The notes beneath the pieces were generated by a model, which did no database searches, had not been told where the DNA came from, and saw only the letters and a list, made by a program, of their open reading frames with translations. The position numbers were made by a program, and so were the translations under genes. Of a stretch of 64,000 nt of DNA, positions 56,500 through 61,017 are shown in pieces (the first letter of the stretch is position 1; every line of letters starts with the position of its first letter). This DNA comes from Enterococcus phage VRE9_4: sequence record PP680570.1, one strand, 5' to 3'.

Positions 56500-56520
56500 A
56501 AAGGAAGGAAGTTTTTTAAA

Positions 56521-59385: not shown

Positions 59386-59616
59386 ATGAGAATCAATGCA
59401 GATAAAATAAGAGAATATAGAGAAGAACATGGAATTAGCATCGATGAGATGGCTGAAATTCTTAATATAGATGGAGAAGCACTTTATGAATACGAAAGTG
59501 GAGTTCCATGGTTTGAAGAAGATGCCTTAACTATTTTTACGATTAATAATATTTGTGATAATTTAGATTTTATTGCTATAGATGTTGATGAATTATTTGA
59601 AGAATATAATATTTAA
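59386..59616 (+). CDS. XRE-family helix-turn-helix protein (76 aa)
   Basis: 'IREYREEHGISIDEMAEILNIDGEALYEYESG'. Confidence 0.5.
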   Translation: MRINADKIREYREEHGISIDEMAEILNIDGEALYEYESGVPWFEEDALTIFTINNICDNLDFIAIDVDELFEEYNI

Positions 59617-59623
59617 TTTTATA

Positions 59624-59662
59624 AAATTCAACTATTGGATTTCCTTTAGTTGAATTTTTTTA
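59624..59662 (+). terminator. Terminator AAATTCAACTA-...-TAGTTGAATTT + T-run after XRE gene
   Basis: 11-bp stem. Confidence 0.6.
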
Positions 59663-59678
59663 TTTAAAATTATATAAT
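59650..59678 (+). promoter_or_regulatory. Promoter TTGAAT-17-TATAAT for the RNase H locus; -35 is 3' arm of the upstream terminator
   Basis: TTGAATttttttatttaaaattaTATAAT. Confidence 0.5.
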
Positions 59679-59713
59679 ATATATATAAGTTAATTAAGGA
59701 AGGAAGTTGTTTA

Positions 59714-59800
59714 ATGAAAGAAGAAATTTTGAACATCCTATTAGTTGATTTAAAAGAAGATTTAGATAGAGAATTAATTGTAGCAGTAGACTTACTTTAG
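59714..59800 (+). CDS. 28-aa upstream ORF in frame with the RNase H gene, separated from it only by TAG (leader peptide or read-through N-terminus?)
   Basis: RBS AAGGAAGGAAGttgtttaATG. Ends with TAG at 59798-59800, in the same frame as 59801-60259. Confidence 0.2.
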   Translation: MKEEILNILLVDLKEDLDRELIVAVDLL

Positions 59801-59812
59801 GAGGCGAAAAGT

Positions 59813-60259
59813 ATAAAAAAGACTATTAAGATTCATGTAGATGGAAGTTACAAACAGAAAGTTAATCCTAATGTAGCTGGTTGGGGCTTCTGCGTTGAAG
59901 CAGAAGAGCAAGAAGTTTTGTATACTGCTTCTGGTATCGTAAGCAATCCAGTCTCTAGACAGATTGACGGAGAAATTCAAGCCGCTAAGGAAGCTATTAA
60001 TTGGTGCCTTGAAAATATTATAGATAAAGTAAATACAAAAATTGAAATATATCACGATTATGAAGGCTTAGGAAAATGGGCTGATAATCTTTGGAAGACA
60101 AATAAACCCTTAACTACAGAATATAAACTTTTTGTTTCTAATGCTCGATTCTCAGGACTTAAGGTTTATTTCATATGGGAAAAAGGTCATAATAATAATT
60201 TTTTTAATGAAATTGCAGATGAATTAGCAACTTCTGCCGTTGAAAATTCTGTTGGTTGA
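59813..60259 (+). CDS. rnhA: Ribonuclease H (RNase HI fold) without canonical start codon; AGGAGG-8nt-ATA candidate initiation
   Basis: 'IKIHVDGSY' (first catalytic Asp), 'EIYHDYEG', 'WEKGHNNNFFNEIADELA'. Frame open from 59801. No ATG/GTG/TTG before the DGS motif. Confidence 0.55.
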   Translation: MKKTIKIHVDGSYKQKVNPNVAGWGFCVEAEEQEVLYTASGIVSNPVSRQIDGEIQAAKEAINWCLENIIDKVNTKIEIYHDYEGLGKWADNLWKTNKPLTTEYKLFVSNARFSGLKVYFIWEKGHNNNFFNEIADELATSAVENSVG

Positions 60260-60291: not shown

Positions 60292-61017
60292 ATGAATAAA
60301 GATTTATTAGTAAAAGGTGTAAAAAGTACAGTAAAAACAGTAGAAACAAAATTAAATAGAAAAGTTCATTCTGTATATTTGACAGGTAGTGTTCTTTATG
60401 GGGTTTCTACTCCCGAAAGTGATTTTGATTTTAAGGTCTATGTATACCCCACTTTTTCAGATTTATGCTTTAACGAAAAGCTCTCTAAAGAGGTGGCTGT
60501 CAATGAAAACAATGTAGAACATGTCTCTGTAAGAGATGTTCGATTCCAGTATGATGAGCTCAATAAATTGTCCCTCAATAGTGCCCACTTACTTCATCCT
60601 CCTCTTTTGGGGAAAAGATTATTTACAAAAGAACAATTAACACAAGTTTTAGAAGAGAGAAAAGATAATTTTCTTTTTAGTCTTGCTGGTGTCTCTTTAT
60701 CAGAGTCTAAAAATGAAGATTCAGGGAAAAAACTTTCAAGAATGTTATTGTTAGAAAATATGTTTACTACTGTTTTAGAGGATAAATTTACTCTAAATTA
60801 TTTCTTTGATAAAGATTCCTATAAAGAAGTATTGGTTAGAGAAAATCTTCATAGATATACAGACTTTGCTAAATTGACTCCTGAAGAATTGATGTTGACA
60901 GCCAAAGACTTTAAAAAACAATATAAGGTTGACTATAAAAAATTGGAGAATGTTTTAAAAAATCAATTATTAGAAACAGTAAAAACATTTTACAATGTAG
61001 GAAAGGAAGTATATTAA
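60292..61017 (+). CDS. Pol-beta-superfamily nucleotidyltransferase (MNT/KNTase-like)
   Basis: 'LTGSVLYGVSTPESDFDFKVYV' = GS-x10-DxD signature. Confidence 0.5.
   Translation: MNKDLLVKGVKSTVKTVETKLNRKVHSVYLTGSVLYGVSTPESDFDFKVYVYPTFSDLCFNEKLSKEVAVNENNVEHVSVRDVRFQYDELNKLSLNSAHLLHPPLLGKRLFTKEQLTQVLEERKDNFLFSLAGVSLSESKNEDSGKKLSRMLLLENMFTTVLEDKFTLNYFFDKDSYKEVLVRENLHRYTDFAKLTPEELMLTAKDFKKQYKVDYKKLENVLKNQLLETVKTFYNVGKEVY

Follow-up and report, generated by a model that had tools for sequence, protein, structure and literature searches.

The window analysed in this study is the whole stretch of 64,000 nt from Enterococcus phage VRE9_4 (PP680570.1), and all of the features described here are located on its plus (+) strand. 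An HTH-type gene encoding 76 aa (59386-59616) is the upstream neighbour of a unit in which a promoter-like site and a small upstream ORF (uORF) precede a gene for RNase H. Reading the sequence directly after the HTH gene revealed a terminator-like hairpin at 59627..59661, in which TTCAACTA and TAGTTGAA enclose a loop of 12 nt and behind which seven consecutive T are found. The terminator scan returned none; this hairpin is too poor in G-C pairs to be picked up by it. L043, the 51% relative, has a homologous counterpart of both the hairpin and the T-run. A sigma-70/SigA-type promoter-like site, TTGAAT-17-TATAAT, lies at 59650..59678. A preliminary description of the locus had called it a consensus promoter. 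It does match at 10 of 12 positions and is conserved in distant relatives, but such sites were not above shuffle expectation (5 found against 7.3 expected in shuffled AT-rich sequence), so that its support comes from conservation and not from the match score.

The uORF comprises 28 codons (MKEEILNILLVDLKEDLDRELIVAVDLL) and extends from the ATG at 59714 to the TAG at 59798-59800 (59714..59800). Its purine-rich ribosome binding site (RBS), AAGGAAGGAAG, is located at 59696..59706, 7 nt 5' of the ATG. This RBS had been regarded as strong; its duplex energy of -10.6 kcal/mol is ordinary, about the median for the genes of the window. A perfect Shine-Dalgarno (SD) sequence, AGGAGG, is found at 59799..59804, and its first two bases (AG) are shared with the uORF TAG. 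An 8-nt spacer, CGAAAAGT (59805-59812, read from the sequence), separates it from an in-frame ATA at 59813..59815, which is the proposed initiation codon of the RNase H gene. The RNase H coding sequence would then consist of 148 codons and a TGA at 60257-60259 (59813..60259). The codons following the ATA are AAA AAG ACT ATT AAG ATT CAT GTA GAT GGA AGT TAC, in which the GAT at 59840 encodes the catalytic Asp, and the N-terminal peptide predicted for an ATA start is (f)M-KKTIKIHVDGSYK ((f)Met-Lys-Lys-Thr-Ile). The uORF and the RNase H gene are in a common reading frame, with a gap of 12 nt between the uORF stop and the ATA. Between the TAG and the catalytic Asp the in-frame codons are GAG GCG AAA AGT ATA AAA AAG ACT ATT AAG ATT CAT GTA; reading them confirmed the earlier statement that no ATG, GTG or TTG occurs in this interval, and the same was true of 26 and a further 4 loci of the clade described below. 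The uORF, the in-frame TAG, the AGGAGG, the 8-nt spacer and the ATA at 59813 were likewise located just where they had been reported.

The product read from the ATA matched Pfam RNase_H (PF00075) over model positions 2-140/141 (E 3e-10, 40.8 bits, cutoff 25.8), PHROG 531 'Rnase H' (E 4.5e-23) and PDB 2kq2 (E 1e-29), and E. coli RNase HI was matched at about 1e-8. Residues D10, E54, D82, H126 and D136, invariant in the alignment of homologues, are the catalytic carboxylates and the His; in E. coli RNase H the catalytic residues are numbered D10, E48, D70 and D134, with His124. The gene encodes an intact predicted type 1 RNase H with a full-length domain. An AF2 model was obtained for the hypothetical 181-aa fusion of the uORF to the RNase H, in which the RNase H domain was confident (mean pLDDT 88) and the modelled order of five strands and four helices fits the RNase H fold. 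Strand beta1 of the model begins about 2-4 residues past the ATA start, and the catalytic Asp is residue 10 counted from it. The alignments with E. coli RNase HI and PDB 2kq2 open at residues 3 and 6 of these proteins, respectively, which likewise begin shortly before beta1.

Since ATG, GTG and TTG are the only starts that gene callers allow, the RNase H gene is missing or truncated in the annotations we looked at. Among the records of VRE9_3, H1, VRE9_1 and EF1, two leave the stretch empty and the PHANOTATE ones place tiny reverse-strand ORFs there. The protein deposited as 'Rnase H [Enterococcus phage VRE9_4]' has 113 aa, is identical to the window ORF that starts at TTG 59918 (59918-60259) and lacks Asp10. 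An NCBI PGAP protein of 142 aa, WP_362876604.1 (MHVDGSY…), starts at the ATT equivalent to 59831. Prodigal-type callers gave 128-aa fragments where the GTA had become GTG, and on short metagenome contigs callers reported false 'fusions' of 181-195 aa with Q at the TAG (alternative code).

These annotations raise the question of whether translation might begin elsewhere, at ATT 59831 as in PGAP, at ATT 59825, or at TTG 59918 as in the VRE9_4 annotation. Both PGAP and Pharokka annotations with such starts exist, and ATT 59831 is invariant in the clade. None of the three codons, however, is preceded by an SD sequence; the duplex energies were -2.0 kcal/mol for ATT 59825, -1.5 kcal/mol for ATT 59831 and -3.0 kcal/mol for TTG 59918. 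Conservation of ATT 59831 is explained by the protein, since ATT is found at this place in the 68% homologue too and encodes a conserved Ile of beta1, and a start there would be expected from the model to remove four beta1 residues. ATT 59825 is GTT in many members of the clade. TTG 59918 occurs only in the window lineage, being TTA in the other four aligned phages, and a start at this codon deletes catalytic Asp10. Initiation at any of these codons is therefore unlikely.

The SD-antiSD duplex energy in front of the ATA at 59813 was -12.2 kcal/mol, which falls within the top 15% of the ORFs in the window and was reached at 0.13% of random positions. We scanned the 64-kb window for ATA, ATT, ATC or CTG codons lying behind a strong SD sequence and followed by at least 60 open codons, with no canonical start within 15 codons, and ATA 59813 was the sole site returned. 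The arrangement of SD and ATA exceeds chance. AGGAGG hexamers occur 38 times in the window, and 21 of the 38 sit 4-12 nt before the canonical start of an ORF of at least 40 aa. Three start-less AGGAGG sites that were inspected as possible further cases (11561, 20751 and 56322) each fell within an ordinary ORF.

The 61 nt around the SD had a minimum free energy of -3.7 kcal/mol and were less structured than shuffled sequences (z +1.19), and the 177-nt leader was not significantly structured (z -1.46). An RNA structure that hides the SD and is opened by translation of the uORF is unsupported by these values, and coupling of the 'melt the hairpin' type is therefore not indicated. A search of the leader for Rfam families gave none; the sole match, DUF2815, was sub-threshold (E 0.29) and lay inside coding sequence.

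We compared the locus with its relatives. The window region is about 94-95% identical to those of VRE9_1, VRE9_2, VRE9_3, H1, EF1 and EF5, six related Enterococcus phages of about 138-142 kb that are listed as unclassified Caudoviricetes. The clade set comprised 32 loci with 18 distinct sequences, from isolates and metagenomes; its sources were isolates from Japan and Ireland, EF1, an IMG/VR contig, ENA, NCBI and Logan assemblies (locus L158 is a duplicate of L009, both being the same IMG/VR contig). The uORF ATG, the TAG, the AGGAGG, the 8-nt spacing and the ATA were identical in 32 of 32 loci. From the TAG to the ATA, variation was confined to two positions, 59805 (C to G, two loci) and 59812 (T to C, L009 and its duplicate). 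The four codons directly after the ATA vary freely, encoding KKTI, EKIV, KNTV, KKII or KKTV. That the ATA is invariant although the codons just after it vary supports its role as a start, as far as can be judged from the alignment.

A sequencing or assembly error, by which an ATG would have become ATA or a sense codon TAG, had been among the explanations put forward. It would have been plausible beforehand for a single sequence, but TAG and ATA are identical in 32 loci from separate projects, which refutes it and leaves it next to no probability.

The RNase H reading frame also bears the marks of a protein-coding gene. Across the 18 distinct sequences, all of which carry the ATA, pN/pS was 0.092 with pS 0.165, and 48 of the 65 variable sites were at codon position 3. 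The comparison covered the first 145 codons, and in this part none of the 32 loci had a frameshift or an internal stop. By this measure the RNase H is under strong purifying selection while the ATA arrangement is in place, which argues that the protein is made. One may still suppose that the gene is an untranslated, start-less remnant preserved by hitch-hiking or by the youth of the clade, since no canonical start is present and RNase H is annotated here in 0 of the 4 GenBank relatives read (VRE9_3, H1, VRE9_1 and EF1). Against this stand the low pN/pS of 0.09 at a pS of 0.165 among the 18 sequences, the open frame over 145 codons, the invariance of the catalytic residues, and the invariance of SD and ATA while neighbouring codons vary. 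We consider such a remnant very unlikely.

More distant homologues carry ordinary start codons. In the 68% homologue (P0004; loci L010-L014) the upstream neighbours are as in the window, in the order Metallophos, HTH, RNase H, and no functional-looking uORF was found upstream of its RNase H. Its start reads AAAGGTGG (AAGGTGG)-10nt-ATG AAA AAC ATT AAA ATT CAT GTA GAT, and the ATA of the window aligns with this ATG, codon by codon. The 51% homologue L043, in which no uORF was found, starts GGGGG-8nt-TTG AAA ATT TAT GTA GAT, and the 48% homologues L044 and L078 start AGGAGG-8nt-TTG AAA ATT TAT GTA GAT. The ATA aligns with the TTG of all three, at an equal SD spacing of 8 nt. Because the ATG or TTG of the homologues stands at the corresponding position, the ATA appears to be a start codon that has changed from ATG or TTG. 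Related phages had been suggested as the place to look for an ATG at this position or for a fused ORF; the clade has ATA throughout, ATG was found in the 68% homologue, and no homologue has a fused ORF. Intermediates of 68-94% identity were found in none of IMG/VR, the JGI/ENA metagenomes, the GTDB genomes and a set of 5.8 billion proteins.

The 139-kb contig represented by L078/L044 is Carnobacterium-associated. Its RNase H start lies 5 nt past the TAA of an acidic ORF, read in a different frame, of 64 aa (65 codons including the stop). The promoter and leader (TTTAAAAT[G/T]ATA.AAT … TATAAAGTTAATT … purine-rich RBS) are nearly invariant within the clade and homologous between the window and L044/L078, at about 75% identity, and L043 also carries the hairpin, the T-run and the promoter. 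Because of this homology, the module formed by promoter, an optional small ORF, a strong SD and an RNase H gene with a weak or ordinary start is, on sequence comparison, old. The window clade has the version with a 28-codon uORF and ATA. A similar organization is seen in Twortvirinae infecting Staphylococcus and Mammaliicoccus (PMS2, Fi4S2 and phiIBB-SEP1), which have a homologous RNase H of 30-36% identity and a small same-strand ORF abutting its start. Their RNase H differs in starting with ATG and in overlapping the upstream ORF of about 62 aa, which is in another frame. Homology of the upstream peptides was considered. The idea that the uORF encodes a homologous but shortened form of the Twortvirinae peptide was unsupported (hhalign probability 0.2%), as was homology of the uORF peptide to the 64-aa ORF of L044/L078, for which BLASTP gave no match; only the promoter and leader DNA are homologous there.

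The common frame of uORF and RNase H raises the further possibility that the UAG at 59798 is decoded, giving a 181-aa protein in which the 28-aa leader and EAKS are fused to RNase H, either as the sole product or as a second isoform. Several observations are in keeping with it besides the frame. Substitution in the uORF is coding-like (pN/pS 0.12), the substitution just before the ATA in L009 (AGT to AGC) is synonymous in the fused frame, and in the AF2 model residues 2-32 form one long helix with pLDDT of about 67-82. This is, however, a generic single helix that says nothing on docking, a common frame is expected in one third of cases by chance, and a substitution in the spacer of L026 and L031 (GCG to GGG) would not be synonymous in the fused frame. 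Proteins P0001 and P0002 have Q at the TAG, but the underlying DNA reads TAG and the Q is thus an artefact of the gene caller. Bacterial ribosomes generally read through UAG spontaneously at a very low rate. The complete genome of VRE9_3 has 15 tRNAs, none with a CUA anticodon and none an initiator, and the window has no tRNA gene. The window fits translation table 11, with TAA as stop 50 times, TGA 7 times and TAG twice, and its ORFs tile with only 4 gaps of more than 300 nt. An N-terminal extension was found in none of the homologues, which start 3-4 residues before beta1, and an upstream ORF is absent in the 68% and 51% relatives and lies in another frame in L044/L078 and Twortvirinae. With no CUA tRNA, a standard code and no fused homologue, amber read-through or suppression, which had also been put forward, is improbable. 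The locus resembles Qbeta A1 read-through and TAG-recoded phages (genetic code 15) in having an in-frame stop between coding segments; it differs in the lack of a suppressor tRNA, of genome-wide in-frame TAGs and of an extended homologue, and in that its stop is UAG and not the leaky UGA.

Other means of joining or starting the frame were considered as well. Ribosome hopping, frameshifting and transcriptional slippage were unsupported when the sequence was read by eye; neither a hopping landing codon nor an alternative-frame start was seen, and TTG 59778 has a TAG as its very next codon. The A6 run that follows the ATA differs in position between loci. The phage tRNA-Ile(UAU) was rejected as an initiator at AUA because of its elongator features, namely an A1:U72 pair and an anticodon stem without the three G-C pairs.

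We conclude that the RNase H gene probably starts by SD-directed initiation at the AUA of 59813, with a probability of roughly 75% on the evidence of the sequences compared. The preliminary description had listed ATA initiation, amber suppression, sequencing error and a regulatory uORF without ranking them. The first is strongly supported by the invariant ATA, by an SD spacing like that of homologues and by purifying selection; the second is unlikely and the third has been refuted, and a role for the uORF is plausible. The locus would be a two-cistron unit with its own promoter, in which the 28-codon uORF is followed by the RNase H gene. The perfect AGGAGG, 8 nt upstream in unstructured RNA, would position the 30S subunit with AUA in the P-site, where the initiator tRNA would pair with it with a mismatch at the third codon base. 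Yield would be reduced, probably to about 1/10 to 1/3 of that of AUG, and the product would be the 148-aa enzyme. A low, fixed dose of RNase H may be a plausible selective reason for such a start. The sequences show the layout of the locus, its constancy in the clade, selection on the protein, the alignment of the ATA with canonical starts of relatives and the lack of a suppressor tRNA or of recoding; from these we infer the use of AUA, its yield and any contribution of the uORF.

Published measurements on AUA starts point in both directions. In S. aureus, AUA starts of infC, ccpN (conserved in B. subtilis) and citZ were identified by Ribo-RET and reporters, with strong extended SDs and about 10-30% of the efficiency of AUG (PMC13009471). 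In T4 rIIB, translation fell to about 15% when AUG was mutated to AUA, and in vitro AUA mRNA is effective when the initiation region is optimised (PMC5499595). In E. coli reporters, AUA gave 1-2% of AUG (bioRxiv 10.1101/063800), and this weakness counts against an AUA start.

The proposed AUA start is most like the AUN starts of Firmicutes, namely the S. aureus AUA starts of infC, ccpN and citZ and the AUU start of cvfC1 (PMC13009471). It shares with them a near-cognate codon behind a strong, well-spaced SD, conservation of this codon across relatives, and an attenuated translation that would be expected at about 10-30% of AUG. It differs in that the gene is a phage RNase H and not a host regulator or initiation factor, with no sign of IF3 autoregulation, and that the SD is a 6-bp core on which a translated-looking uORF ends. 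The SD here lacks the start-proximal extension, reading GGAGG-C-G against the S. aureus consensus GGAGG-U-G. With the AUU starts of E. coli infC and pcnB and the T4 rIIB AUA mutant (PMC5499595, PMC13009471) it would have in common a start discriminated against by IF3, and with rIIB also a phage gene that still works from AUA at lower yield. The rIIB codon is a laboratory mutation, whereas the state described here is natural and conserved; E. coli infC is part of a defined feedback loop, and none is implied here.

The locus adds a natural, well-conserved example to the known class of AUN starts supported by a strong SD. The finding is only moderately surprising and leaves the present view of translation initiation as it is. 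It would be a naturally conserved case of AUA initiation in a phage with a Gram-positive host, and an evolutionary series can be proposed from ATG or TTG in relatives to ATA here, with a stronger SD and an abutting uORF. The locus may serve as a test case of how a weak start may be offset by a strong SD and by termination upstream of it, and for better start-codon models for phages. Its main practical value is correct annotation for the whole group of Enterococcus phages of about 140 kb, in whose public records, as far as looked at, a predicted replication-related enzyme is absent or shortened.

The uORF may add to initiation at the AUA. Six of its codons vary in the clade, four synonymously and two conservatively (I/V and A/S), giving the pN/pS of 0.12 mentioned above; with these six sites, the binomial p of the coding-like pattern under a neutral model that leaves transition bias out of account is about 0.03. 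The peptide, which includes the stretch MKEEILNILLVDLK, is acidic and conserved, and no match to it was found in Pfam or PHROG. A conserved ATG and RBS, an SD of median strength and a low pN/pS at the six sites make it probable that the uORF is translated, and its sequence may matter. A role for it in starting RNase H is plausible. Ribosomes terminating on the uORF would briefly cover the SD and AUA, and those that finish it may also re-initiate at the AUA, 12 nt past the stop.

Re-initiation by terminating ribosomes has been reviewed (PMC12548453). Measurements show a steep loss of such coupling as the distance grows, with little left at about 20 nt (PMC10666635), so that the contribution of the uORF at 12 nt may be small. 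As in translationally coupled genes (PMC6728339, PMC10666635, PMC12548453), the two ORFs are co-directional and the upstream stop adjoins the downstream SD, and the 12-nt gap is inside the '+10 nt' class seen in E. coli. Typical pairs, in contrast, overlap by 4 nt or 1 nt; here the downstream start is also non-canonical and there is no inhibitory structure to melt. A joint reading of the two ORFs, in which ribosomes terminating at the UAG are handed to the AUA, or the peptide has a role of its own, or a minor read-through isoform is made, is tentative and doubtful as it stands. Were the hand-over true, translation of the uORF would set RNase H output, and the usual proofreading by IF3 would be evaded by the poor codon.

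An origin of the uORF by duplication or mobile insertion was considered and set aside; the window and the VRE9_3 genome hold no second copy of it, only short RBS-like matches. The RBS motif of the uORF, AAGGAAGGAAGTT, also precedes another ATG of the window, at 56501-56519.

Two relatives with 48% RNase H homologues, L044 and L078, carry a 64-aa acidic ORF (65 codons including the stop; MKLSEYIKVLQEVESVAVDFD…) that precedes the RNase H gene at about positions 360-600 of the respective loci. Their sources are a 139-kb contig associated with Carnobacterium and a contig from a gut metagenome. The promoter and leader of this ORF are homologous to those of the window, and the RNase H start, located 3' of the ORF, is AGGAGG-8nt-TTG. 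The combination of a small upstream ORF with a weak RNase H start is thus recurrent in the lineage. Minimal ATG-opened frames persist in the RNase H leaders of the 68% homologue (L010) and the 51% relative (L043), neither of which has a real uORF. An ATG-TAA within positions 2440-2500 of L010 and a 7-codon frame, ATGAATAGGGGGAAAATATCTTGA, at about 560-600 of L043 were each located just 5' of the RNase H SD or start. No convincing RBS was found for either frame. These frames may be remnants of the small upstream ORF.

The RNase H gene at 59813-60259 has received at least five mutually incompatible annotations across public records (P0003, P0007, P0001/P0002 and L001-L004). It is not annotated in the records of the related Enterococcus phages H1 and EF1, and tiny reverse-strand PHANOTATE ORFs stand in its place in those of VRE9_1 and VRE9_3. 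The VRE9_4 record gives a 113-aa TTG-start fragment (P0003), NCBI PGAP a 142-aa protein with an ATT start (WP_362876604.1, P0007) and other records 128-aa GTG-start fragments. In short Logan and ENA contigs, the gene appears as 181-195-aa 'TAG = Q' fusions. As a stop codon TAG is rare in the window, where G+C content is 31%: of the 59 ORFs that encode 80 aa or more, 2 end in TAG, 50 in TAA and 7 in TGA.

About 15 tRNAs are clustered in this phage group, approximately 9-18 kb 3' of the RNase H locus and outside the window. Among them is a tRNA-Ile whose anticodon is UAU (104510-104585 of the VRE9_3 genome; 4510-4585 of L019, a stretch of that genome), a direct decoder of AUA of a kind unusual in bacteria. 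Its features are those of an elongator, not an initiator.

Among the bacterial and metagenome loci L045-L157, most distant bacterial homologues (Lachnospiraceae, Mogibacterium and Anaerovoracaceae) are probably two-domain RNase H proteins, because about 65-200 in-frame codons precede the DGS motif. In contrast, the phage form is single-domain.

The RNase H gene is flanked by genes for a 76-aa HTH protein (59386-59616; weak match to PHROG 3, 'transcriptional repressor') and a 241-aa protein whose N-terminus resembles a nucleotidyltransferase (60292-61017; PHROG 33308, and PHROG 388 with an E value of 5e-11). The order HTH to RNase H is also kept in the 68% relative. The HTH gene's terminator-like hairpin and the promoter that follows it lie within 59627-59678, and the 3' arm of the former overlaps the -35 hexamer of the latter (TAGTTGAAT). 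The 51% relative L043 shows this arrangement too.
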